DNA from: Waterburya sp.
GTDB lineage: Bacteria; Cyanobacteriota; Cyanobacteriia; Cyanobacteriales; Xenococcaceae
DNA: 64,000 nucleotides
Assembly (NCBI GenBank): GCA_965217895.1
Contig: CBDCJV010000002.1
Location: 704,001 to 768,000 of the forward strand
Direction: 5' to 3'
A model generated the notes under the pieces. It saw only the letters and a program-made list of their open reading frames with translations. It was not told the origin of the DNA and did no database searches. Numbering within the stretch: position 1 is the first letter of the stretch; every line of letters begins with the position of its first letter. A program made the translations under genes and the position numbers. Positions 42,912 to 57,821 of the stretch are shown here, piece after piece.

Positions 42912-44075
42912 ATGATGATCGAAAAAATACTAGGAAGAAAAAATCTTAAGGTAAATATTTCTATTGTTGGCGGTTCTAATTCAGTAATGAGGCAAGGCTA
43001 TGCTAAATATTTAGATGCCTATATTAGAAAGGAAACCTCTTTAGAAACATCGCTAAAATATTATTCTTTGGGTGGTGTACCTAACATTTTTGGTACTATT
43101 CAAGAACACAGATACAACATAGGTGTCAACAGTGATATTGTATTTTTTGAATATTGTGTAAACGATCGCCATGCTATTGAGATAGACCAGTATTCTCTGG
43201 AATTGGTTGGAAAAGCATTAGAAGGATTTATTAGAAAAGTAAACAAATCAAATCCTAACTGCTTAATAGTCATTCTGATATTCGGAATTAATCTAGACAA
43301 TTTTTATAATAATCATTGTCATTTATCAGAGCTTTATCAAAAAATAGGCAATCATTACGGTTTGCCAACAATCGATATTACTAAAGTATTAAGCAATACT
43401 TATAGTTTAGAGTACGTTAAAGCTTTATATAATGATAGAGATCATGCCCATTATTCTAGACCCAGAGGAGTACAAATTGTTTCTCAGACTATTGTAAAAG
43501 AGCTAAAAAGGCTCGGAATAATCAATAATCTACAAGCAATTAAAAACAGCATAAACAAACAAAATAAGCAGTTAGAAATATCTCCTATTTATTATGATAA
43601 TTTTGAGGAGTTGGCTTTTCTTGAACGTTTTGAAAATGACAATTGCTTTTCAAAGCCTCCCAAAATATCAGTTTACCAAAACACAGTTTTCAGGGAAAAA
43701 AATTTTACTATTTATCAAGGCAATTCTTTGAAGTTTCTTTTAAAAGGGAAGCTAATGGCAATTTTTATTAAATCCGATCTTAATGATGGTTTTATTACCA
43801 TTGAATTTAATAAACAACGTATTGTTACTAGCTCCTATTCTTCTTGGGTTAATAATATTAAACCTCAAAACGTTATCAATTTAATTGCTTTACCTTTACG
43901 CCGATTTTCAGCATCTGAGGACTTTGCGATCGCATCAATCAGTTTATGTCCAGAATATCCCCATGATTTTGAGTTGGATTTTAATAAAGCTGTTCCAACT
44001 AAAAAAGACCCTAAAAAATGGAAACTAAGCATTATAGGCATTGCCTATATTGGTGAAATAAAACCGTTAAACTAA
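42912..44075 (+). CDS. SGNH/GDSL hydrolase-like protein
   Basis: GGSNS block I, EYCVND block III, DHAH block V. Confidence 0.7.
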   Translation: MMIEKILGRKNLKVNISIVGGSNSVMRQGYAKYLDAYIRKETSLETSLKYYSLGGVPNIFGTIQEHRYNIGVNSDIVFFEYCVNDRHAIEIDQYSLELVGKALEGFIRKVNKSNPNCLIVILIFGINLDNFYNNHCHLSELYQKIGNHYGLPTIDITKVLSNTYSLEYVKALYNDRDHAHYSRPRGVQIVSQTIVKELKRLGIINNLQAIKNSINKQNKQLEISPIYYDNFEELAFLERFENDNCFSKPPKISVYQNTVFREKNFTIYQGNSLKFLLKGKLMAIFIKSDLNDGFITIEFNKQRIVTSSYSSWVNNIKPQNVINLIALPLRRFSASEDFAIASISLCPEYPHDFELDFNKAVPTKKDPKKWKLSIIGIAYIGEIKPLN

Positions 44076-44186
44076 TTAACCTTAGTTCTGGTTAATTTAT
44101 TTAACGGTTAGCGACTAGTAACCATCAACAATCAATTAGAGTATTAAAACTAAACCTCTTGAAAATATGAAAACGCTATAAACAAG

Positions 44187-44396
44187 CTATTTGGATTTAT
44201 AGTTACTATCTAACCAGCATTGAGGAAGATTTTCTCCAGAAGGAAAAACTAGATTTTGCTTGTCAAAAGGTTCTGGAGGCTGTTCATTTTGACCAGCTTG
44301 CATTTGACCTGTTACTTTGTCCTTGAAAGGATCGATTAATTCATCTATTTCAGAAATTTCGACCAATTCATCGTCCTGCTTGTTTTTTAATAACAT
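44187..44396 (-). CDS. Small conserved cyanobacterial protein
   Basis: LIDPF…QAGQNEQ…LVFPSGENLPQCW motif. Confidence 0.75.
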   Translation of the reverse strand: MLLKNKQDDELVEISEIDELIDPFKDKVTGQMQAGQNEQPPEPFDKQNLVFPSGENLPQCWLDSNYKSK

Positions 44397-44589
44397 TAAA
44401 TAGCCCCTTGCTTATGAATGTAAATAAAATATTGTAGGTAGTTGACTTGAAATTTATTACAAGAACAACTGGCAATATTTACACACTCAAAATACTATAA
44501 ACTCGATGCTATTTCCATCTGGCAAAAGGCTTAGATTTTAAGACACACATTATAATCGTATCTCACGGCTATAAAGCTTAAATCAGCAT

Positions 44590-45165
44590 TTAATCAGTTA
44601 AACCGCCAAACACACCCTTGAGGGCAGCGATCGCATCTTCTGCTGCTGCCCAAATACCGTCTTCTGGTTCGTTCCCTGTTAATTGGCGTACGCCATAATA
44701 GTAAATTGCCCCTTTTAATTGTTCTTGATGAGCGCGATTTTTAAAGTTGGCTTTATTGATCGGGTCTACTAGTTTTTGCAAAATACCGTCAGTTGCTTGA
44801 GCTGCTTTATGCACCAATAAACCAGTCATTACTAACTGATGCTTTAGCCCTTCGTGCTGCATAAATTTTTCGTATATGTCCAAATGATTTTCAGACATAA
44901 TACTTTCGATAGTTTGCACCATATTGGTAACGGTATCACTGGGTTGTGAAGTCATTTCCAATTCAGCAATAGCTTCATCAATTGCAGTTAAACTTTTGCG
45001 ATCGTCCTCTAACATATCTGTTAAAGTTTCTGTAACTTTTTTGTTATCAGTGCTTGCCTTTAATAACTTTTCTTCGTTGGAAATCATTAAATTTTGCAGA
45101 GTTTTCATATCTGCTAATTTACGAGCGATCGCATTTTTCTTTGTAGTTTCTAATGTAGCTGCCAT
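44590..45165 (-). CDS. Ferritin/hemerythrin-like helical protein
   Basis: KLADMK…QHEGLKHQ…HKAAQ…NFKNRAHQEQLK; His/Glu-rich four-helix pattern. Confidence 0.65.
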   Translation of the reverse strand: MAATLETTKKNAIARKLADMKTLQNLMISNEEKLLKASTDNKKVTETLTDMLEDDRKSLTAIDEAIAELEMTSQPSDTVTNMVQTIESIMSENHLDIYEKFMQHEGLKHQLVMTGLLVHKAAQATDGILQKLVDPINKANFKNRAHQEQLKGAIYYYGVRQLTGNEPEDGIWAAAEDAIAALKGVFGGLTD

Positions 45166-45518
45166 AAGCTGCTTTTACTCCAATTTCTAATTAATTTCGT
45201 CTAACTGTTATAGTCTGACGTTAATTTTCACGAGAAACATCCTACTTATGATTGATCGATGTTTCCATTTAGCAATTAGAATTAAGTAGACAATGAGGGC
45301 ATTGCTAAATCGGGGTATGATTCACCAACGCCGAAAATATTGTAGGGTCAGAGGTCAGCAAGGTTTATCTTGTTTGCCAACTTAGGATTAAACTTTTCAG
45401 ACTAACTTACAACGATAAATAATTTTATTTTGCTACCTGTTAAAAATGACAGGTGTTTATAGTTTCTGTACTTTAACTATCTTTTATTCCTGTACCTATC
45501 GCTAGTGTCAACTATTCC

Positions 45519-45561
45519 GTAGCAAAATACACAGGCCGATCGAGGACTAAACTTCTAATCT
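45519..45561 (+). promoter_or_regulatory. Candidate NtcA-activated promoter
   Basis: GTA-GCAAAATA-CAC (45519-45532), 23 nt spacer, then TAATCT (TAN3T) at 45556-45561. Confidence 0.55.
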
Positions 45562-45614
45562 GGTCGGTAACTCAGTCGAAAATTAACCGACTGTTGCAGT
45601 CTTGAAGTGAAATA

Positions 45615-46895
45615 ATGAAAAAGCACTACTCCGTAATAGTTGTGGGTGGTGGTCAAGCTGGTCTTTCAATCAGTTATTGTTTGAAGCAAAAAGGCATCGA
45701 CCACATTGTATTTGAAAAGAATCAGATTGGTTATTCTTGGCAACAAAAACGCTGGGATACATTCTGCCTGGTGACACCTAACTGGCAATGTACTCTCCCT
45801 GGTTATCATTATCCAGGTGACGATCCTGACGGTTTTATGGAAAGAGATGCGATCGTTGAATATGTAAAGGATTATGCCAAATTTTTCAACCCACCAATCA
45901 AAGAAGGAGTAGAAGTATTTTCAGTTAAGAAAAATAATTCTCAAGGGTTATTTGAACTAGCGACTTCTATTGACAACTATACGGCGGATCAGGTTGTTGT
46001 CGCCACAGGCAGCTATCATCAGGCGAAAGTGCCGAGAATGGCGGAAAGGTTTACGGGCGATGTAATGCAACTGCATTCTTCTGACTACAAAAACCCTGAG
46101 TTATTGCCAGAAGGAGAAGTATTAGTAATCGGTAGTGGGCAATCTGGTTGTCAGATAGCAGAAGACTTACACTTGGCAGGTAGAAAAACTCATCTTTGCG
46201 TTGGTGGCGCACCGCGATCGCCTCGTAAGTATCGGGGCAAAGATGTTGTAGATTGGTTAGACCGACTGGGATATTACGATCTGAGTATAGATAAACACGC
46301 CGATCCTGAAAGTGTAAGAAACAAAACTAACCATTATCTTACAGGTCGCGATGGTGGTCATGAAATAGACTTAAGACAGTTTGCTAAAGAGGGAATGCAG
46401 CTATATGGTTCACTCAAAGATATTCAGGGCGATCGCTTAGAATTTAAATCCAATCTAAAGCACAACCTGGATCGCGCTGATAATGTAGCCGAAAGTATTA
46501 AAAAGACTATCGATGAATACATCGTCAGAAAAGAAATAGATGCGCCTACCGAAGAGGCTTATAAGCCAGTTTGGCAACCAGAAGAAGTTGCGCAACTTGA
46601 CTATAAAAAAAGCAACATCACTTCTGTAATTTGGTGTATTGGCTATCAAACTAACTTTAACTGGATTAAAGTTCCTGTATTTGACGGGCTAGGCTATCCT
46701 AGCCACGATCGCGGTGTTACAAGTGCCAGGGGCTTATATTTCGTAGGTCTTCCTTGGCTGTATACCTGGGGTTCGGGAAGATTTTCAGGTATAGCCAGAG
46801 ATGCCGAATATCTGTCTGACTACATTGCCAACAGGATGAAATATGCCTATCCAGGTACATTGCTGGCTGTTAATGAAGCTGCGCTCGGCTCTTAA
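45615..46895 (+). CDS. Flavin-dependent oxidoreductase, MSMEG_0569/NitH family (Nit1C cluster)
   Basis: GGGQAG, RWDTFCLVTPNW, HSSDY, GSGQSGCQIAEDL, WGSGRFSG. Confidence 0.88.
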   Translation: MKKHYSVIVVGGGQAGLSISYCLKQKGIDHIVFEKNQIGYSWQQKRWDTFCLVTPNWQCTLPGYHYPGDDPDGFMERDAIVEYVKDYAKFFNPPIKEGVEVFSVKKNNSQGLFELATSIDNYTADQVVVATGSYHQAKVPRMAERFTGDVMQLHSSDYKNPELLPEGEVLVIGSGQSGCQIAEDLHLAGRKTHLCVGGAPRSPRKYRGKDVVDWLDRLGYYDLSIDKHADPESVRNKTNHYLTGRDGGHEIDLRQFAKEGMQLYGSLKDIQGDRLEFKSNLKHNLDRADNVAESIKKTIDEYIVRKEIDAPTEEAYKPVWQPEEVAQLDYKKSNITSVIWCIGYQTNFNWIKVPVFDGLGYPSHDRGVTSARGLYFVGLPWLYTWGSGRFSGIARDAEYLSDYIANRMKYAYPGTLLAVNEAALGS

Positions 46896-47000
46896 CAATG
46901 AACAATGAACAATGAACAATGAACAATTGTAGAACAATTGTAGGGTGGGCATGAAGATAAGTCTTGTATTCAAAAAGCAATTTTAAATTGCCCACCGCTA
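46894..47000. repeat. Heptamer tandem repeat (AACAATG)x4 plus a REP-like inverted repeat
   Basis: aacaatg tandem at 46894-46921; gtagggtgggca…tgcccaccgcta at 46940-47000. Confidence 0.75.
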
Positions 47001-47044
47001 ACGATAAATAATGATTGATAAACTATTTAAAAGGAAAATAAATT

Positions 47045-47527
47045 ATGCCTGAAGTTACTACCCCCGCACACAAAGCTGGTGATTTCTTTGTCGATTACGA
47101 AGAAAAAGTATTTCCCGATATTAAAGCTGAACCAGGAGAAAAAGCATTAGTTACATTTCATACCGTGGCTTTTGAAGGTTCGATTGGTTTAGTAAATTTA
47201 TTACAGGCTACCCGCTTGATTCGCAAAGGTTTTGATACCTCGGTGTTGCTTTATGGTCCTGGGGTAACGTTAGGAATACAGCGAGGCTTTCCGAAGATTG
47301 GCGATGAATCTTTTCCTGGACATCAGGCGATGAACAACCAGCTAATCAAAATTATGGAAGAGGGTGCAAAAGTCTATGCCTGTCGTTTTGCACTGCAAGC
47401 ATTATATGGACATGGTGAACCCTCTCTAATTCCTGGAATTACCCCCATTAACCCTTTAGATGTACTGGATATAGTCTTGATGCACCGCAAAGAAGGCGCA
47501 TTTATCCTTGATACTTGGACAATGTAA
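47045..47527 (+). CDS. MSMEG_0572/Sll0783 family protein (NitB, DsrE-like)
   Basis: [33 protein letters not shown]. Confidence 0.9.
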
Positions 47528-47626
47528 GTCGTAGCTAGTTTAGAACCTATCACTTAGAAGATAACTGTTTGTAAGTAGGAAGTAATAAGTTTAAACCTGC
47601 TGTCAATGTTCGATGGTAAATGATAA

Positions 47627-48655
47627 ATGATGAATGTAAAAGCAGCAGCAGTACAAATATCTCCTGTGCTTTATAGCCAAGAAGGAACTACAGAGAAAGT
47701 TTTAAAAGCGATCACCGATGCTGGCAAAGAAGGGGTGCAGTTAATTGTTTTCCCTGAAACCTTTATTCCCTACTACCCTTATTTCTCTTTTATACAGCCA
47801 CCCGTGTTGATGGGTAAGGAACACATGAGGCTATATGAGGAAGCGGTATCGATTCCTAGTCCTGTTACCGAAGCGGTTAGTAAAGCAGCTAAAGCTAACT
47901 CAATGGTAGTAGTTTTGGGAGTTAACGAACGGGACGGAGGTTCTCTATATAATACTCAGTTAATCTTTGATGCTGATGGTAGTTTATTACTCAAACGCCG
48001 TAAGATAACTCCTACCTACCACGAACGAATGATTTGGGGACAGGGAGACGGATCGGGATTACAGGTATTAGACACGGCTGTCGGTAAAGTGGGTGCTTTA
48101 GCCTGTTGGGAACACTATAATCCTCTAGCTAGATATAGTCTGATGGCACAGCAGGAACAAATACATTGCGCTCAATTTCCTGGTTCGATGGTGGGGCAAA
48201 TCTTTGCCGATCAAACCGAGGTGACGATTAAACATCATGCTTTAGAGGCTGGTTGTTTTGTGGTTAATTCGACTGGCTGGCTAAGTCCCGAACAAGTTGT
48301 TGAAATATGTCCCGATGAGAATCTGCGACGGGTTTTAACTGGTGGCTGCTACACCACTATCATTTCTCCCGAAGGTGTTTGCCTGTGTGAACCCATAACA
48401 GAAGGAGAAGGCATGGCGATCGCCGATTTGGATTTCTCTTTAATTACTAAACGCAAGCGGATGATGGACTCAGTGGGACACTATTCCCGTCCCGATCTAT
48501 TGCAGCTTCAGGTGAATCAAGATGCTCGTAATGTTTGGCAACAAACACCCACAGATTATGCGATCGCCTCAGAAAATGAACTAGCTATTAATGGCAAATT
48601 ACCAACTCCAGAATTACCAAAAATTAACGAACCAAAACCTATAACTAATAATTAA
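47627..48655 (+). CDS. Nit6803-type nitrilase (NitC)
   Basis: Catalytic E (FPETF), K ([11 protein letters not shown]) and C (ACWEHYNPL). Confidence 0.93.
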
Positions 48656-48689
48656 CAATTCTACGCGCCTTAATCGTGCCGCGATCGCC

Positions 48690-49802
48690 ATGACAAATGA
48701 GCAAAAACGCAAATTAATTACAGATCTACAGTCCCAAGGATTAAAACTAGCTGAAAACATTACAGGTGCAGCAGGAAGAAAAGGTGGTGCAGGTCCATCA
48801 GATCACAAAGCTGTAACAATAGACGGCACAACGGTCATGATACCCGTTTACACTAGTGTTGCTGCTAAATCTAACTATACACTTGCAGATTTTCACAAAC
48901 AGTCGCTCAACTATAAGAAATCTTATGTTTTAGAAAAGAATGAAGAGGGTATTGCATCGATCCAATTTCCCAACCAGCCCAAATTTTATAGCCTCAAAAC
49001 TGCCGAAGGGATACCCTACAGTCACATTGCTTTATTGCATAGCCATAACGTCCTTGCCACAACAGTTTTACAAAGCTGCATCCGCTATAGTAACCGCAAT
49101 ACAGCCTGTCAATTTTGCGCCATCGAACAATCTCTAGCAGCAGAAAAAACGATCGCCCAAAAAACTCCCGAACAATTAGCAGAAGTGGCAGCAGCAGCAG
49201 TTGAGCTTGACGGTATAGAACAGTTAGTAATGACTACAGGCACACCCAATACGACAGATCGAGGGGCAGCCTATTTAATTGAATGCGCCAAAGCAGTCAA
49301 AGCGAGAGTCAATTTACCTATTCAGGCACAGTGCGAACCTCCCGATGATTTTATTTGGTTTAAACGAATGAAAGCCTGGGGAATAGATAGTTTGGGAATG
49401 CACCTCGAAGTAATTGAACCAGAAGTGCGCGATCGCATTATGCCAGGCAAAGCCAAAGTATCTCTAGATTATTACTTTCAAGCATTTGAGGCAGCAGCAA
49501 AAGTCTTTGGTTGGGGACAGGTAAGCACTTACATTTTGGCAGGTTTAGGAGACAGCTTAGAAAGCATCACCGATACTTGCGATCGCTTAATAAAGCTAGG
49601 AGTTTATCCCTTTGTTGTTCCCTTTATTCCCGTTACTGGAACACCATTAGCCAACCATCAACCCCCCAGCAGCGAATTTATGTATGCAATCTATGAACAG
49701 GTAGGGGCAATGTTAAATCATGCAGGTATGTCCTCCCAAGATATTAAAGCTGGCTGTGCCAAGTGTGGTGCTTGTTCTGCACTTTCTACCTTTGAACATT
49801 AA
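48690..49802 (+). CDS. MSMEG_0568 family radical SAM protein (NitD)
   Basis: RKGGAGPSDH, C-x8-CQFC, C-terminal CAKCGACS. Confidence 0.9.
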   Translation: MTNEQKRKLITDLQSQGLKLAENITGAAGRKGGAGPSDHKAVTIDGTTVMIPVYTSVAAKSNYTLADFHKQSLNYKKSYVLEKNEEGIASIQFPNQPKFYSLKTAEGIPYSHIALLHSHNVLATTVLQSCIRYSNRNTACQFCAIEQSLAAEKTIAQKTPEQLAEVAAAAVELDGIEQLVMTTGTPNTTDRGAAYLIECAKAVKARVNLPIQAQCEPPDDFIWFKRMKAWGIDSLGMHLEVIEPEVRDRIMPGKAKVSLDYYFQAFEAAAKVFGWGQVSTYILAGLGDSLESITDTCDRLIKLGVYPFVVPFIPVTGTPLANHQPPSSEFMYAIYEQVGAMLNHAGMSSQDIKAGCAKCGACSALSTFEH

Positions 49803-49847
49803 GCGCATTGAACATTGCATCAAATAATTAACAACAACTAACGACGA

Positions 49848-50354
49848 ATGACTAAATACCAATTTAAACTAGCTTTATCACCAGCCCATATAGAAGCTTA
49901 CTTTCTACTAAGACAACAAATTTTCTGTCAAGAACAAGGTATCTTTCAAATGAGCGATCGCGATAACTATGACTCAATCGCTTATCCTATTGTTGCCATC
50001 AATAATGATAACAAGGTTGTCGGAGTTGTCAGGATCTATGAAACCGAACCTGGACTTTGGTACGGTGGCAGACTTGGGGTACATCCAGATTATCGACGAG
50101 GGTGGAAGATTGGCAAAGAATTAATCAATAAAGCGGTAACTACGGCTAATGCTTGGGGCTGCGATCGCTTTTTAGCCACAGTTCAATTAACTAACGTGCG
50201 CTTTTTTCAAAGATTACACTGGAACTCAGTTGAAGAAATTTCTATTTGCGATCAACCCCATCATCTAATGGAAGCTGAACTAGCTTTTTATCCCCCCACG
50301 AATCAAACTCGTCCTAGTTTACCAATGCAGCTACAGCAATTATCCGTTAGCTGA
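49848..50354 (+). CDS. MSMEG_0567 N-terminal/Sll0786-like GNAT acetyltransferase (NitE)
   Basis: LRQQIFCQEQ, WYGGRLGV, FLATVQ, FFQRLHW. Confidence 0.88.
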   Translation: MTKYQFKLALSPAHIEAYFLLRQQIFCQEQGIFQMSDRDNYDSIAYPIVAINNDNKVVGVVRIYETEPGLWYGGRLGVHPDYRRGWKIGKELINKAVTTANAWGCDRFLATVQLTNVRFFQRLHWNSVEEISICDQPHHLMEAELAFYPPTNQTRPSLPMQLQQLSVS

Positions 50355-50377
50355 CATTAACTCCTTATCAAATTCAG

Positions 50378-50689
50378 CTAACTAATAAAAATTTCAATTG
50401 AACTCAAAAGGTTTGGAAGCTTATTTTGAACTACATCCCAAACGACATCAAGATCAATTTGATCGTATTTATGTACAATTATTTCTCGCCACCTAATTTC
50501 TGGATGACTTTGACGAAACGACTCAGATAATCTTTTAGTTGCCTCGCCAATAATTGTAATTTGATAAAGGATTGCCGAAATTTTTTCATCGTTAGCTTCT
50601 AGCTCTAAAAAGCTGATGCCATCTGAGTAATGTAAAATACGTTTAATAGCATTAACTATATTAATCAGAGATTCTTTGTCACGCAGCAT
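50378..50689 (-). pseudogene. HepT/DUF86 HEPN toxin with a deletion in the RNase motif
   Basis: IIGEATKRLS…HPEIRWREI-IVHKYD…DVVW; the usual AGMR(D/N) segment before the His is missing. Confidence 0.7.
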
Positions 50690-50993
50690 AAATAACTCGT
50701 GCAGAGTCTATAATATTGTCTTTTCTAAGCCAATTATCGCTGCGCTCGATCGCTGCTTTAACAATCAAGTCCACCTTTCTATCAAAAATAGCCTCAAGCT
50801 CATCTTGCATTTGTATAGTTTCAGTTAGCCCTCTTTTTGTGTTGGCATCGAAGCTTACCAATACGTCAATATCGCTGGAGACATTGAAATCGTCACGCAA
50901 AACAGAGCCAAATAGAGCAAATTCAATAATCTGCCATTAATGGCAAAATTTTTTGATTTTATCTAAAGGTATGTCGATATTTTGAAACTCCAT
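50679..50993 (-). pseudogene. MNT nucleotidyltransferase antitoxin with an in-frame TAA
   Basis: MEFQNIDIPLDKIKKFCH*WQIIEFALFGSVLRDDFNVSSDIDVLV; stop at 50937-50939. Confidence 0.8.
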
Positions 50994-51065
50994 AGACAAC
51001 CAAATTCTTAAACCTCAGCTTAGTATTATAGGCGATCAAAAGACCGCTTAAGAGCCGATTGTATC

Positions 51066-51230
51066 TAGGGCGTGTCATCAATTAAAAAAAAGAGCTTTTT
51101 TTGGTATTTTAACGACCTACTGCGTCGAAAAATAACCTCCGTAGCCCTGCTATGCAGAACATTTTTCTTCTTGTATCTCGCTAAAATACGCTGCAAAAGC
51201 ATTCTTCCCCTCAATTGATGACACGCCCTA
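51066..51230. mobile_element. MITE with perfect 18-bp terminal inverted repeats
   Basis: tagggcgtgtcatcaatt … aattgatgacacgcccta; no coding capacity. Confidence 0.85.
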
Positions 51231-51577
51231 AGCAAATAATATAAATTATGTCGCGAACAAAACCAAAAATTGAGGAATTTATAAGTAGATACTTTAAATG
51301 AGGAAGAAATTTTAGTAACATTACTATCTTTGCAGAGCCAAACAGCAAAAAACTATAATCTAACTAACCCTAACGCCACCAAAGTGATTTTTTCAGCTTT
51401 AACTTAAAAATAGCGATCGCGAAGAGAAATTCATAACTTATGATGTAAGTTGGCAGGCTTATAAGTCATCAGTCAATACTTGCATTGTTTAGTATTTTTA
51501 TAATTTGGCAATCAGCAATTAGGCGTAGATAGTTTAAAAAATCGCTTAATCGCTCTTTTTTGCTGTAATTACCAAAT

Positions 51578-51605
51578 GTAATGTAGATTACGTAAAAATA
51601 ACTAC
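51578..51605 (+). promoter_or_regulatory. Two back-to-back NtcA consensus boxes upstream of cynS
   Basis: GTA-ATGTAGAT-TAC (51578-51591) and GTA-AAAATAAC-TAC (51592-51605). Confidence 0.65.
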
Positions 51606-51655
51606 AAACTTAAAATTTAAAAAACGCTTTAATGACTTAACAGCAAAATGTCAGC

Positions 51656-51750
51656 ATGGCGATTGCAAGACAGCGCGGTCTTGAGGTTTCCTCAAGTGGA
51701 GCGACTGTCGAGGGTGGGTAAGCTGGCTAAACGCCAGCACCCTTCGCCAT
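51656..51750. repeat. Nested palindromic short dispersed repeat in the cynS leader
   Basis: atggcga…tcgccat enclosing cttgagg/cctcaag, agggtg/caccct and gctggc/gccagc; shares actgtcgaggg with the 14.4-kb mosaic. Confidence 0.65.
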
Positions 51751-51919
51751 CAATTACAGATATGGTAATTTCCTCAAGCACAAAAGCTATAGATAAGTGA
51801 GGTAATGTGTTAGCTCCCAACGAGGAAATCTGAGTGAATTAGATTTGATTTATATGATGTGTGGTGTGTTCACATGACTACGGATCGCTGGAAATTTATG
51901 GCGGAGGAGGAATTAAATT

Positions 51920-52366
51920 ATGAAAGTATTTCCCGAAATCACTGAAAAATTATTAGCAGCTAAAAAAGAAAAAGGAATTACCTTTGAGGATCTAGAAAAG
52001 GCAGTCGGACGAGATGAAACTTGGATCGCTTCGGTTATCTATCGTCAAGCCAGTGCAGATATGGACGAAGCTACAAAAATAGTTACCACTTTAGGTTTAC
52101 CAGAATCAATGGCTGAACCTCTTACAGTTGCACCCCTAAAGGGTTCTCTTGAGCCTCAAATACCTACCGACCCATTAATTTATCGTTTTTACGAAATTAT
52201 GCAGGTATACGGAATGCCAATCAAAGCCGTAGTCCATGAAAAATTTGGGGATGGCATCATGAGTGCAATTGATTTTTCAGTTGAAGTAGAGAAAGTAGAA
52301 GATCCAAAAGGCGATCGCGTACAGATAGTAATGTGTGGTAAATTTTTACCTTATAAGAAATGGTAG
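51920..52366 (+). CDS. cynS: Cyanase (cyanate lyase)
   Basis: [39 protein letters not shown]. Confidence 0.95.
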
Positions 52367-52370
52367 ATTT

Positions 52371-52673
52371 ATGTATCTAACACCAAAAGAAATGGAGCGG
52401 TTAACGATATTTACCGCTGCCGAAATTGCCCGTCGTCGCAAAGCCAAAGGGATTAAATTAAATGTCCCCGAAGCGATCGCCTATATTACCGATGCGCTGG
52501 TAGAAGGGGCGAGGGAAGATAAAACTGTAGCTCAATTAATGAGCGAGGGTGCAGAATTACTGACAATGGATGATGTCTTACCAGGAGTAACAGAATTGAT
52601 TCCCTTAATTCAAGTAGAGGCACATTTTCTTGATGGCACGAAGTTAATTAGTGTTCATAATCCGATTAGATAG
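52371..52673 (+). CDS. ureA: Urease gamma subunit (divergent)
   Basis: MYLTPKE…LNVPEA…EGARE…[22 protein letters not shown] 4 nt after the cynS stop. Confidence 0.9.
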
Positions 52674-52731
52674 CCCTAGTTCTAGTAGTAAGTAAGATAA
52701 GGGCGAACGGTCGTTCGCCTGTACAAAAATT

Positions 52732-53097
52732 ATGATTCCAGGTGAAATATTTTTTGCAGAGGATGAGATTGAAATTAATGCAGGTAGAGAGAAGAAAACG
52801 ATCGCGGTAGATAATACAGGCGATCGTCCGATTCAAGTCGGTTCTCATTTTCACTTTTTTGAAGTCAATCGAGCATTAGCATTTGATCGCCCTGCTGCGT
52901 TTGGTTTTCGTTTGGATATTCCTTCTGGAACGGCAGTACGTTTTGAACCTGGAGATACTAAAGAAATTATTTTAGTTGCCCTTGGAGGAAACAGGCGAGT
53001 TATCGGACTTAATAATTTAACCAACGGTGCATTAGATAATTCAGAAATTGAAGCTGTTGCGATCGCTAATGCCCAACAATTAGGTTTTTATCAATAA
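52732..53097 (+). CDS. ureB: Urease beta subunit
   Basis: [40 protein letters not shown]. Confidence 0.93.
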
Positions 53098-53099
53098 CT

Positions 53100-53127
53100 G
53101 TAGGGGCGATTTGCGAATCGCCCCTAC
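53100..53127. repeat. GTAG-type REP-like palindrome
   Basis: gtaggggcgatt-tgcg-aatcgcccctac; related palindrome at 52700-52720. Confidence 0.75.
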
Positions 53128-53150
53128 GACTACTAACAATTAACCACAAC

Positions 53151-54857
53151 ATGAGAATCAACCGCGAACGATATGGAGAATTATTTGGTGCGACCAAAGG
53201 CGATCGCCTGCGTCTGGGAGATACTTCAATAATTATTGAAATTGAAGCGGATACAGGAGTTTACGGGGATGAATGTGTTTTTGGTGGCGGAAAAACGCTA
53301 CGGGATGGTTTGGGTTTAGCACCAGGAGTTACGGCATCTCAAGGCGCATTAGATTTGGTTTTAACCAATGTTATCGTCATGGATGCGGTGTTGGGCATTA
53401 TTAAAACCGATCTGGGCATCAAAGATGGCAAAATAGTGGGTATTGGTAAGGCTGGTAATCCAGATATTATGGACGGGGTAACACCCAATCTAATTGTTAG
53501 TGCCAATACAGATGTACGCTCGGCTGAAGGCTTGATTGCTACGGCTGGTGGAATTGATGGTCACGTTCATTTTGATAGTGCTGGGTTGTGCGCTGAAGCT
53601 CTTTCTAGCGGTATTACTACCATGATTGGTGGTGGTTTAGGCCCTGTTACCGTGGGGATTTGTTCGGGTGGGGCGCGGAATTTAGGAATTATGCTGCAAG
53701 CCACAGAAAGCTTTCCGATTAATTTTGGTTTCCTGGGTAAAGGTAGCTCTAGTTTACCTGCCAGTTTAATAGAACAGATCGAAGGTGGGGCAATCGGCTT
53801 AAAGATTCACGAAGATTGGGGGGCGATGCCTGCTGCCATTGATACTTGTCTGAGGGTGGCAGATGAATACGATTTTCAAGTACAGCTACACAGCGATACT
53901 CTTAACGAATCGGGATATGTGGAAGATACCTTAGATGCGATCGCAGGTCGTACCATTCATATGTACCATACGGAAGGGGCTGGGGGCGGTCATGCACCAG
54001 ATATTATTAAAGTGGCTTCTTATCCTCACTGTTTGCCCTCTTCTACCAACCCGACTAATCCCTATACGATAAATACTTTTGACGAGCATTTAGATATGGT
54101 GATGGTCTGTCATCATCTCAATCCTAGAGTACCCGAAGATATTGCTTTTGCCGACTCGCGTATTCGAGCCGAAACCATTGCTGCTGAAGATATTTTGCAC
54201 GATATGGGAGCAATTTCCATGATGGGTTCGGATAGTCAGGGAATGGGGCGCATTGCCGAAACAATCTGTCGTACATGGCAACTGGCTTCTAAAATGAAAG
54301 ACCAGCGAGGAGTATTACCAGGAGATAGCGATCGCCATGATAATCAAAGAGCTTTACGCTATTTAGCTAAATATACAATTAACCCCGCCCGCACCTACGG
54401 CATAGATCGCTATGTAGGTTCATTAGAACCAGGAAAAATTGCCGATATAGTGCTGTGGCAACCTGGATTCTTTGGTATTAAGCCCGAATTGATTATAAAA
54501 GGTGGTTTTATTACTTGGTCGCCCATGGGAGAGTCGAATGCTTCTTTAATGACCTGCGAACCAATTATTTATCGACCACAGTGGAGTAGTTTTGGTATTG
54601 CACCTCAAGCTACTTCCTTTAGTTTTATGACCCAAGCAGCCATAGATAAAGGCATCCCTAATAAATTAGGTTTGCAAAAACCAGCTTTAGCTGTAACAGG
54701 TACTCGTTCTTTATCTAAGTCTGACCTAATACACAATAATATTTGTCCTCAGATTAAAGTCGATCCTGATACATTTCAGGTCAAAGTTGACGGCGAACTA
54801 GCAATCTGCGAACCAGTCGATCGCGTTCCTTTGGGAAGATTATATATGTTTCGTTAA
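53151..54857 (+). CDS. ureC: Urease alpha subunit-like amidohydrolase (divergent)
   Basis: [38 protein letters not shown] and SDSQ metal/catalytic motifs are present; several normally invariant loops differ. Confidence 0.9.
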
Positions 54858-54966
54858 TCGTGTCTGGTGTTGAAATTCGTAAGAATCGCTACTCCTATAG
54901 TTAAAACTTCATGATAATGTTAAGTCCAATTATTGTTAAAGAATGCAGTAGGGCAAAATATTTCTT

Positions 54967-55797
54967 ATGGAACGTACATTTGTTGGTACTCTCAAAACCT
55001 TATGGCGTTATCCAGTTAAATCGATGCAGGGGGAAGAATTAGACAAGTCAGATATCGACATAAAAGGATTATTGGGCGATCGCACTCATGCCCTTTGGGA
55101 CGTAGAAACTAAGCGCGTTGCCAGTGCCAAAAATCCGCGAAAATGGTCGTCTTTACTTAACTGTCATGCCACCTTTGAGCAAACACCCCAGGTAGATAAA
55201 CTTATACCTACCGTACATATTTCTCTCCCTGATGGTTCTACTATTACCAGCAAGCAAGCTGATATTAATACCCAGCTATCTAACTGGATTAAGCGAGAAG
55301 TAAAGTTTCTGACTACTGCCCCTGAAACACCCAGTCTCGACCAATACTGGCCAGATGTCGAAGGCACAGCCTATCAAGATACGGTGACTCAGTTGTTTAT
55401 GCCGACTGAAACTTTTTTCGATTCCTGCCCGATTCACGCGATTACTACTGCTACTCTTAATCGTCTACAACAACTTTATCCAGATGGAGAATTTGCTATC
55501 TGTCGCTTTCGCCCTAACTTACTGATTGATACCTTATCAACTCAAGCTGATTTTGTCGAAAATGATTGGGTTGGTCATATTCTAGCGATCGGCGATTCTG
55601 TTAGGCTTAAGATTGATACAGCCTGTCCTCGATGTGTCGTAACCACTTTGGCACAAGAGGGATTGCCTCAAGATTTAAATATTTTGAAAACTACTGCTAA
55701 GTATAACGATGTTATTGCAGGAATAAGATTGTCAGTCATTCAAGGAGGCACTATTCATCAAGGAGATTCTATCTGGTTGTTAGAAATTAAAGTTTAG
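54967..55797 (+). CDS. MOSC-domain (mARC/YcbX-like) molybdoprotein
   Basis: WRYPVKSMQGE, GDR, RFRPN, CPRCVVT (Moco Cys); no C-terminal 2Fe-2S domain. Confidence 0.9.
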   Translation: MERTFVGTLKTLWRYPVKSMQGEELDKSDIDIKGLLGDRTHALWDVETKRVASAKNPRKWSSLLNCHATFEQTPQVDKLIPTVHISLPDGSTITSKQADINTQLSNWIKREVKFLTTAPETPSLDQYWPDVEGTAYQDTVTQLFMPTETFFDSCPIHAITTATLNRLQQLYPDGEFAICRFRPNLLIDTLSTQADFVENDWVGHILAIGDSVRLKIDTACPRCVVTTLAQEGLPQDLNILKTTAKYNDVIAGIRLSVIQGGTIHQGDSIWLLEIKV

Positions 55798-55860
55798 GAT
55801 AGTTGTTCAACTGATTGACTATCATGGCTTTTAGAGTTGGCTAACTTATGGCAGTAATTT

Positions 55861-56931
55861 TTAAACTCTTTTAACCTGCTCTCTTTCTACCGCTTCAAAC
55901 AAGGCTTTAAAATTGCCTTGACCAAAACCTTTTGCTTCTTGTCTACGTTCAATAAATTCAAGAAAAAAAGTTGGCTGCTCAAAAATGGGCTGAGTAAAAA
56001 TCTGCATCAGTAAAGATTCTACAACAGGCTGATATTCTAACTCCCCTCGATCGCCATCGACTAAAATTTGCAGATCGGCGATCGCTTGCCACTCTTGAAT
56101 GCTTAACCGTGATTTATGCTTTAGCAGACGGTAATAGGACTGGGGTACGGTTAAAAAATTAAGATGAGGCTGCATCAAAGCCACGTCGGCAATCAAGTTT
56201 TGCGATCGCAATGCTAGATGTTGAATACCCGATCCACCATTAAGATTGATAAATTCTTGAATTTGAGAATTGGCTGTCGTTGGTTGATTAATATTAAACT
56301 GCACTTCACCGCTATCATTGATTAAAGCCTGACTGGTTAATCCTGATTTTTCGGTGTGAATATTAAAACTCTGCTGTATTTTAAATCCAAATAAAGACTG
56401 ATATAACTTGACAGCAGAGTCTAATTTACCCACAGCAACATTGAGAACAACGTGATCGATATGAGTAATATTTGTCTGGAAATCAGCCTTGAGCGAATAT
56501 GGCTCAATATCTATATCTGGTAAGCAATAATCAAATTTATCTGAAGTCCCTTCAATTAAAGTATGTTGGAGAGAATTCCAGCCAGTAATTTTGGCAGCTT
56601 TAAATTTCCCTGGTAACGATCGGTAAGTTTGAGGATGCTGTAATATTTTTACTCCTAAATACTTACCCTGACTAATAACTGATTTAATATCATCTATTCT
56701 AAAGGCAATATCCACTATCCCCGAAGGATGAAGCTCAAGATACTTGGCAACTGGACTAGTATTGCTTAAGGGCGAAGAAATTACCAAAAAAGCCGAATTT
56801 AAGGCAATTACCTCAGTCTGGGTGTGTTTATTAATACTTCTGCCGATCGCTTGAAAGCCGACATTGTGGATAAACCAGTCTCTTGTTCTTGCTGCATTCC
56901 TGGTATAGAAATGAACATGATCGATCTTCAT
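55861..56931 (-). CDS. hppD: 4-hydroxyphenylpyruvate dioxygenase
   Basis: IDHVV, SQIQEF, GIQHLAL, QIFT, FLEFIER, GFGQGNFKALFEAVEREQ; start corrected to MKIDH at 56931. Confidence 0.92.
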   Translation of the reverse strand: MKIDHVHFYTRNAARTRDWFIHNVGFQAIGRSINKHTQTEVIALNSAFLVISSPLSNTSPVAKYLELHPSGIVDIAFRIDDIKSVISQGKYLGVKILQHPQTYRSLPGKFKAAKITGWNSLQHTLIEGTSDKFDYCLPDIDIEPYSLKADFQTNITHIDHVVLNVAVGKLDSAVKLYQSLFGFKIQQSFNIHTEKSGLTSQALINDSGEVQFNINQPTTANSQIQEFINLNGGSGIQHLALRSQNLIADVALMQPHLNFLTVPQSYYRLLKHKSRLSIQEWQAIADLQILVDGDRGELEYQPVVESLLMQIFTQPIFEQPTFFLEFIERRQEAKGFGQGNFKALFEAVEREQVKRV

Positions 56932-56963
56932 AAAGTTATTACTGTCGTAACTGTTGAGCCTAT

Positions 56964-57821
56964 CTATTTCGTAGCACAAATCAACCCAAAACGAATCAAT
57001 CCCCTGGCATAGCCGCGACTCATCAGATTTAAAGATAATGCTCCTTGGATTGTTTGCCAACCTGCTTGGAATAAACCCATGATTGCCTGGGGTGTAATAG
57101 CTGAGTCGATTACTACATCCCAGAAAGGCGACACCGCCATCGACCAATCATCTGATTTAAGCTCATTAAAACCACATTCAGTTGCGATCGCCCGATACTC
57201 GGACAAAGAGATCACATAAGGTAGGCAATATACGCGATAAATTTCTTTGAGATGAGCAATTTCATTAACAGTTAAATTCCCAGCTAAAGAATCAGTTTCT
57301 CGATGACACCAGGTAGCTAAAATTATTTTTCCGCCTGGCTTTAAGACGCGATAACATTCTGCCAAGAATTTGGTTTTATCGGGCATATGTTCCCCGCTTT
57401 CTAATGACCACACCAAATCAAAAGTATTGTCCTCAAAAGGCATCTCTAAAGCGTTCGCTACTTCAAACCTAACGCGATCGTCTAAATCTGCTTCTACTGC
57501 CCTTTCCCTGGCTCTAAATGCTTGCACAGGAGATAAAGTAATGCCTGTAGCCTTACTGCCAAACTTTTGGGCTAAATATAAGGTACTGCCACCAATACCG
57601 CAGCCGACATCAATTATTTTCTTGGGCGCATTATTTTCAGCATAACCAGCCCAAATTAACAATTCTTCAATTAATTCTATTTGCGCCTGACGGCGATCTA
57701 ATCTGTAGTTACCATTCTTGCCATAGTAACCGTGGTGCATATGTTCACCCCAAACTTCCTCCCATATTCCGCTAGAGGCATCATAAAACTCTCTGATATT
57801 TTGATATAAGTTGTTACTCAT
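56964..57821 (-). CDS. vte4: Gamma-tocopherol methyltransferase-like SAM methyltransferase
   Basis: FYDASSGIWEEVWGEHMHHGYY, DVGCGIGGS, WSLESGEHMPDK, ATWCHR. Confidence 0.85.
   Translation of the reverse strand: MSNNLYQNIREFYDASSGIWEEVWGEHMHHGYYGKNGNYRLDRRQAQIELIEELLIWAGYAENNAPKKIIDVGCGIGGSTLYLAQKFGSKATGITLSPVQAFRARERAVEADLDDRVRFEVANALEMPFEDNTFDLVWSLESGEHMPDKTKFLAECYRVLKPGGKIILATWCHRETDSLAGNLTVNEIAHLKEIYRVYCLPYVISLSEYRAIATECGFNELKSDDWSMAVSPFWDVVIDSAITPQAIMGLFQAGWQTIQGALSLNLMSRGYARGLIRFGLICATK

Follow-up and report, generated by a model that had tools for sequence, protein, structure and literature searches.

A short-loop urease alpha subunit of Waterburya with intact metal ligands and a rebuilt substrate pocket, from a subfamily whose amide-operon setting may point to substituted ureas

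The gene ureC' of Waterburya sp. encodes a protein whose profile score, fold and metal ligands place it in the urease alpha family, but whose substrate pocket and clade set it apart from canonical urease. It is found in the 64,000-nucleotide stretch analysed here (the window; contig CBDCJV010000002.1, positions 704,001 to 768,000), in a genome of 5.3 Mb that is 99.9% complete. The best explanation, to which we give a probability of roughly 0.45, is that this short-loop variant is a nickel amidohydrolase widened to mono-N-substituted ureas that would probably still split urea. That reading draws on the pocket changes, retention beside a canonical urease, the amide context, the loss of a urea-binding triad in neighbouring transport proteins, a co-occurring MOSC protein, methylamine genes, further paralogues and the inhibition of formamidases.

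The variant lies in a predicted operon with the gene order cynS, ureA', ureB', ureC' and a MOSC_N+MOSC gene, for which the features are as follows.

51578..51605, no strand assigned: two tandem GTA-N8-TAC boxes, ~330 bases upstream of cynS
51920..52366, + strand: cynS, cyanase, TIGR00673 above cut-off; first gene of the predicted operon
52371..52673, + strand: ureA' (gamma subunit), 59% identity to the host's canonical UreA
52732..53097, + strand: ureB' (beta subunit), 59% identity to the host's canonical UreB
53151..54857, + strand: ureC', a 568-aa open frame; urease alpha subunit with a short loop and intact metal ligands
54967..55797, + strand: MOSC_N + MOSC protein, mARC/YcbX-like (Pfam PF03476 + PF03473); predicted Mo-dependent N-hydroxy reductase

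A scan of species genomes gave at least 577 related stretches, the best 80 of which were examined as variant loci. Context was counted at loci flanked by 6 kb or more on each side, taking genes within 9 kb: 49 of these 80, 26 of 31 Rhizobiales and 7 of 13 host-family variant loci, with 24 canonical and 9 other loci from 44 paired loci serving as the non-variant set. The cyanase gene adjoins the variant at 5 of 13 relatives' loci and is present in 47 of 60 host-family genomes, variant or not, and is probably a lineage-specific neighbour. We rejected cynS as an obligatory partner (the idea of a cyanate-forming lyase), given that it is common without the variant and stands at 0/49 loci from the best 80 of at least 577 and at 0/26 of the other non-family loci; it is a weaker clue than MOSC to the variant's role.

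The sequence GTA-N8-TAC, which we take to be the NtcA-type consensus, matches 15 times in the window against 10.2 expected, so that the boxes are not significant alone. The same pair also lies upstream of cynS in 2 of the 5 relatives sharing the gene order, and two or more occur in 1.1% of random 700-base stretches; the cynS-ureA'B'C' operon may thus be under nitrogen control. No riboswitch was found in window positions 44000-57000 or at 14 loci, where the matches were one tRNA and an RF02514 hit antisense inside ureC itself. In one relative (L116:5747-8410) a nitrate-reductase-like molybdoenzyme gene and its associated protein stand between ureA' and ureB', with amiE, an NMT1-type ABC importer and cynS upstream.

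Further upstream in the window is a Nit1C-type cluster (45615-50354, + strand) with the MSMEG_0569 flavoprotein, Sll0783, Nit6803 nitrilase, radical SAM and GNAT genes, each scoring above its NCBIfam cut-off. Its GNAT gene is not followed by an AIR-synthase-like Sll0787 ORF; a HepT-like toxin-antitoxin pair stands there instead (50378-50992, - strand; a HepT-like ribonuclease ORF at 50378-50689, PF01934, and a probable nucleotidyltransferase partner just upstream) and separates Nit1C from cynS. With that pair in between, and Nit1C at 0/13 relatives' loci in the stretches examined, we regard the cluster as incidental to the variant module. Divergent from it runs a 191-aa ORF (44590-45165, - strand) with no NCBIfam or Pfam match.

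Membership of the urease alpha subunit family is defined by TIGR01792 / PF00449, and ureC' scored 843 bits against TIGR01792 (NCBIfam urease alpha; cut-off 680). UreC' is 56% identical to the host genome's canonical UreC and matches the two-metal set at HVH 138-140, Lys218, His220, His247, His273 and Asp361, with flap Cys320-His321 present and Asp222 and Arg337 also as in the K. aerogenes UreC alignment. Four His, the carbamylatable Lys, the Asp and the flap Cys-His are therefore all in the sequence, gamma and beta genes are encoded alongside, and every metal-ligand and pocket motif listed by an earlier, sequence-only reading was found where expected. An AlphaFold model from a 90-row alignment reached pLDDT 93. 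It has the fold of solved ureases, at TM 0.98 and rmsd 1.1-1.3 Å, and its three least confident blocks were the three rewritten pocket segments (pLDDT 75, 78 and 73). The close homologues P0015, P0018 and P0030 have insertions of 5-25 residues after residue 393-394, a variable surface segment.

The changes in the substrate pocket fall in four segments.

53562..53588, + strand: HVHFDSAGL (residues 138-146); metal His138/His140, then subfamily-invariant Asp142 (canonical Ile), Ala144 and Leu146
53628..53672, + strand: short loop [15 protein letters not shown] (residues 160-174); 3 residues shorter, VGI for ATT
54228..54251, + strand: SDSQGMGR (residues 360-367); metal Asp361 kept, Gly364 at the S. 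pasteurii Ala366 equivalent
54528..54563, + strand: [12 protein letters not shown] (residues 460-471); canonical GDxNASIPTPQP replaced, Leu466, Met467 and Cys469 diagnostic

UreC' thus departs from the canonical pocket, which combines a long loop containing ATT, Ala three residues after the metal Asp and SIPTP; in place of the SIPTP segment it carries SLMTCEP. Loop 160-174 is 3 residues shorter than in K. aerogenes UreC by pairwise alignment, as had been estimated from the sequence, yet the ATT segment is not lost as was then supposed, since VGI substitutes for it with Val168 at the Ala position. The three deleted residues sit just before the ATT equivalent (the gap moves one residue in the H. 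pylori alignment), and with the deletion so placed the main-chain carbonyl may survive. At Gly364 the carbonyl is likewise retained and the methyl alone is lost. In S. pasteurii the Ni2-bound and distal N of urea are contacted by the main-chain O of Ala170 and Ala366, and the Ala366 C-beta/methyl contacts the Ni2 water site (PMC7433671), in agreement with the earlier statement that Ala main-chain carbonyls line the urea site. Because both of these urea contacts are main-chain carbonyls, the pocket changes need not abolish urea binding; the changed segments would sit where an N-substituent needs room. Across the loop, UreC' is three residues short of every solved urease compared, a set from nine organisms that includes the H. 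mustelae iron urease 3qga, and Ala occupies the Gly364 position in five solved-urease alignments. The substitutions are thus not common among verified ureases, the short loop occurring in those of 0/9 organisms.

The rebuilt pocket is a property of a subfamily. The short loop and Gly364 were present at 80/80 loci (the best 80 of at least 577), whose hosts are cyanobacteria, three proteobacterial classes, actinobacteria and one thaumarchaeote. The variant occurs in 14/60 genomes of the host's family, in 26/391 sampled Cyanophyceae genomes, host included, and in 32/401 sampled Rhizobiales genomes (three candidates scored per genome). Motifs sorted 201 UreC rows into 94 variant, 62 canonical and 45 other rows. 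The variant and canonical rows are told apart by 23 columns (at 90% non-redundancy, 57 and 34 rows remain). The grouping drew on part of the pocket motifs; overall identity reproduced the split for 93/93 variant and 58/58 canonical locus rows, and Ala225, Met226, Leu466, Met467, Cys469, Gln477 and Trp478 are separating columns that the grouping had not used. Against 8 close relatives, ureC' showed 108-225 synonymous and 14-50 non-synonymous changes. Changes common to all 80 of the best 80 of at least 577 loci, combined with mostly synonymous differences, are not the product of chance or decay.

In trees, the canonical rows formed one branch without UreC' (SH-aLRT 99 on all columns and 95 once the pocket columns were removed), and the short-loop group formed one side of a branch at 91 and 77, respectively, which makes its monophyly weak. 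These were quick trees with SH-aLRT and no bootstrap, an assumed root, and 21 degenerate rows omitted from the first and 6 more from the second. The alignment and phylogeny that the sequence-only reading had recommended therefore place UreC' outside the canonical branch, with pocket changes conserved in its subfamily. The short loop and Gly were also found in 7/7 more distant homologues used as outgroup, with metal ligands kept, so that under that assumed root the canonical pocket may be the derived one. In sum, the variant resembles canonical nickel urease UreABC (K. aerogenes 1EJW/2KAU, S. pasteurii, jack bean; EC 3.5.1.5) in its three-subunit gene set, fold, ligands, carbamylatable Lys, flap Cys-His and, at most loci, ureDEFG; it differs in the loop shortened by 3, VGI for ATT, Asp142, Gly364, SLMTCEP and AM after HEDWG, in its separate lineage and in a context that is amide-operon and not UrtA-type. 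A full-text literature search, with most subscription journals outside its scope, found no characterisation of the short-loop subfamily, apparently a widespread branch without one, and the amide-operon setting, the absence of the binding-protein triad and the MOSC co-occurrence are apparently new here. Methylenediurea hydrolase, a lead for the variant's identity, gained no support from that search.

The variant is usually kept beside a canonical urease. The host's only other ureC has canonical motifs throughout and lies beside the genome's only ureG and ureD, and a canonical urease accompanies the variant in 13/14 carriers of the host's family, in 27/31 evenly drawn Rhizobiales carriers and in 34/50 variant genomes searched from the best 80 of at least 577 loci. 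Among those 50, 21/21 genomes with RefSeq NZ_ accessions have it, and the 16 without it are metagenome-assembled. In genomes G063 and G064 the two urease loci lie 14-15 kb apart. Five metagenome assemblies have 2-3 short-loop paralogues each, with differing pockets and even flaps and no canonical copy, which looks like a diversification of substrate.

Other short-loop paralogues show further changes. At L178-L184, L035:19900-21609, L185 and L192 the flap Cys and second His are replaced or GGGH is altered; such genes number 2-3 to a genome in assemblies from alpha- and gammaproteobacteria, and some adjoin ureohydrolases. A sister short-loop branch with HVHFIDPGQ and a PIASTG loop is carried on plasmids of Aminobacter, Ancylobacter and Paracoccus (L214, L262, L263), beside AmiC/ANTAR genes and a branched-chain-type ABC importer; two of the three loci also have a nitrilase-family gene and insertion sequences, and the third has C1 folate genes. 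It looks like a mobile catabolic module, and several enterobacterial plasmids score near it.

Variant loci are set among amide genes. amiE, amiC, amiR or fmdA lay within 9 kb at 25/49 loci (from the best 80 of at least 577) and 20/26 Rhizobiales loci, compared to 0/24 canonical loci for amiE/amiC/amiR and 5/24 for fmdA, two of these being shared clusters. The linkage spans cyanobacteria and alpha-, beta- and gamma-proteobacteria, and many variant operons combine amiC-amiR, the importer and the variant with amiE absent. An AmiC-AmiR sensor, an amide-type ABC importer, AmiE, FmdA and a CbbQ/VWA pair around the variant recall P. aeruginosa amiE/amiC/amiR and Methylophilus fmdCABDEF; those systems, as described in the available parts of PMC13209695 and PMC10781810, include no short-loop urease. 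The host genome carries amiE with a MekB-like acetyl-esterase homologue, and fmdA with an amide-type importer, away from the window (G000:C2:4993685-4995855 and 1207031-1210442). Methylamine-assimilation genes occur near 3/49 (from the best 80 of at least 577) and 3/26 variant loci vs 0/24 canonical ones, and stand directly upstream of the variant on an Acinetobacter plasmid; mgsA/mgsC were not found in the host genome. At two actinobacterial loci (L015:8932-9306, L053:8239-8637), stand-alone genes for an allophanate hydrolase C-terminal domain (PF21986) lie directly upstream of the variant ureAB.

The neighbouring transport proteins also differ. Prochlorococcus UrtA binds urea with Gln144 and Asn246 and also needs Trp120 (PMC10392092). 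This Trp/Gln/Asn triad was present in 0/46 ABC binding proteins beside the variant vs 8/11 beside canonical ureases; two shared clusters (four rows) and other paralogues (three rows) were left out of this count. A single Urt-family binding protein, of the amide type, was found in the host genome. The Methylophilus amide transporter imports amides and urea (PMC10781810), so the transporter signal does not exclude urea; the same review describes formamidases as inhibited by urea and thiourea.

In the host's family, MOSC orthologues were present in 12/14 variant-bearing vs 0/46 other genomes, on a different contig from the variant in four. Across the class (Cyanophyceae) they were found in 21/26 variant carriers vs 36/365 others, and nine other families holding the variant gave 20 co-occurrences vs 6.0 expected (maximum 15 in 200,000 draws), a count in which kin are dependent. 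The window protein has MOSC_N fused to a MOSC domain, as in mARC/YcbX-like proteins, and matches human mARC1 weakly (E 5e-7). Enzymes of the mARC type such as human mARC1 act as reductases on N-hydroxy compounds, hydroxamic acids and N-hydroxyurea among them (PMC10637980). In 6/20 MOSC loci the gene follows fmdA-urt with the variant absent, suggesting that it is part of a wider amide/urea module and not tied to the variant alone. Beside proteobacterial variants it is rare (1/49 from the best 80 of at least 577, 1/26).

We therefore arrived at the following proposal. UreC' would be the catalytic subunit of a second urease-fold enzyme with a standard two-nickel centre, in which the short loop and Gly364 could make space at the urea-nitrogen site for a small substituent. 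Candidate substrates are N-hydroxyurea in the cyanobacterial setting and N-methylurea where methylamine genes are attached; jack bean urease with N-methylurea is reportedly the subject of a classic study. N-methylurea would approximate propionamide and N-hydroxyurea glycolamide in shape, so an amide importer and sensor would be expected to admit both. The variant may serve a nitrogen-scavenging module for small amides, whose transporter would also bring in amidase-inhibiting urea analogues. Hydrolysis would give ammonia, CO2 and methylamine or hydroxylamine. Methylamine would match the methylamine genes that some hosts carry, and hydroxylamine the cyanobacterial N-OH reductase; in cyanobacteria the MOSC protein might reduce the N-hydroxy substrate or product and cyanase remove cyanate.

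Doubtful, but the most serious alternative, is that the variant is an ordinary urea hydrolase differing from other ureases in kinetics, regulation or resistance to inhibitors such as acetohydroxamate, an amidase side product; its co-induction with amide genes would then reflect a transporter and sensor shared by amides and urea. Beside the variant, a ureohydrolase pair resembling DmgH/MefH (dimethylguanidine/metformin hydrolase) was found at E 4e-167, directly upstream at 3 of the best 80 of at least 577 loci and in 4/9 Rhizobiales matches (one frameshifted). Dimethylguanidine hydrolase yields urea and dimethylamine, as does a homologue at ~70% identity (PMC11399263); the described DmgH/MefH clusters, with a urease mentioned downstream of Aminobacter dmgH, resemble the variant's setting at several alphaproteobacterial loci, where homologous pairs lie directly upstream, although the DmgH fold is unlike that of urease. 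A search of three of these genomes (G085, G152 and G204, assemblies as they stand) turned up no canonical urease and no urea carboxylase; G506 does encode the carboxylase. The DmgH linkage, a urea-carrying amide importer and a sole binding protein of amide type make a loss of urea activity unlikely, and keep this alternative alive. Against it, such an enzyme would be redundant beside the canonical urease of most carriers, pocket positions that do not vary among canonical ureases hold other, fixed residues in the variant across phyla, the binding-protein triad differs, and derived paralogues vary exactly the same pocket segments. Elsewhere in the host genome a ureohydrolase, which we take to be probably a cyanobacterial guanidine hydrolase, adjoins a hypB-like gene (G000:C2:3548860-3551891) and would in that case be an internal urea source.

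It is improbable that the enzyme hydrolyses carboxamides beyond AmiE and FmdA, such as N-methylformamide, N-methylacetamide, hydroxamic acids or acyl-ureas (formyl- or acetyl-urea to formamide or acetamide). The variant does stand among amiC-amiR, amiE, fmdA and the MekB-like acetyl-esterase homologue, the last inside 8/26 Rhizobiales variant operons; AmiC homologues beside it match P. aeruginosa AmiC at E 2e-96, and MOSC enzymes turn hydroxamic acids into amides. However, the flap and catalytic residues are urease-like with no visible change for a carbon leaving group, and the DmgH linkage favours a urea-type substrate.

The earlier reading had offered H. mustelae UreA2B2, which we take to be an iron-containing, accessory-independent urease, as a precedent. 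Both are second urease loci without adjoining accessory genes: ureDEFG are missing from the window locus, and accessory genes from 7/7 host-family loci with flanks of at least 6 kb. Outside that family, however, ureD/F/G were present at 49/49 loci (from the best 80 of at least 577) and 26/26 Rhizobiales loci, 75/75 in all, so that the short-loop subfamily normally has its own accessory genes. The host's set is also closer to variant-linked sets of other cyanobacteria (UreD 45-52%, UreF 48-56%, UreG 79-83%) than to canonical- or other-linked ones (at most 26%, 31% and 57%; UreD 23-26% for most canonical-linked), the exception to this split being two Phormidesmis-like clusters holding both ureases. 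3QGA is long-looped and no closer to UreC' than other ureases (655 bits, vs 697 for Klebsiella UreC). An iron enzyme of this kind is accordingly very improbable. Of the altered specificity or metal usage once suggested, the first has gained indirect support from the kept paralogue, amide operons, transporter pocket and further paralogues, whereas the accessory evidence speaks against iron.

On the nickel amidohydrolase reading, UreA'B'C' would be loaded in trans by the host's only UreD/E/F/G set, the simplest reading of these data. The host's canonical operon (L084, G000:C2:4639581-4644950) carries ureG/D/E/F of the variant-linked type, which suggests, from sequence relationships, that chaperone sets have been exchanged between the two urease lineages. 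Five variant-bearing relatives have one ureD each; UreD of the host's type also occurs in 3/5 relatives without the variant, so capture of the accessory set is not tied to the variant. Two host-family genomes carry the other UreD type. That the variant is a drifting, dispensable duplicate is hardly credible: its distribution in the host family is patchy (14/60) and copies in G040, G051 and G033 are split or contain stops, but the synonymous excess is strong and at least 60% identity and fixed motifs are held across phyla.

The variant changes residues held to position the urea nitrogens while keeping the metal centre, and so offers a natural test of structure-based urease mechanism. A broader view, to which we give limited credence, is of urease as a multi-substrate family of two-nickel amidohydrolases with the canonical long-loop enzymes as one specialised branch and short-loop members that prefer other substrates; the short-loop enzyme would then be the first N-substituted-urea hydrolase of the fold, coupled in cyanobacteria to a molybdenum N-OH reductase. 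Cyanobacteria would in that case scavenge N-hydroxylated nitrogen by a route so far unrecognised. Work on soil, water and engineered systems uses ureC as a marker of urea use, and the variant carries the plain annotation 'urease'; should it prefer substituted ureas, 'urease' counts would mix two activities, and a nitrogen-scavenging route would be absent from models.
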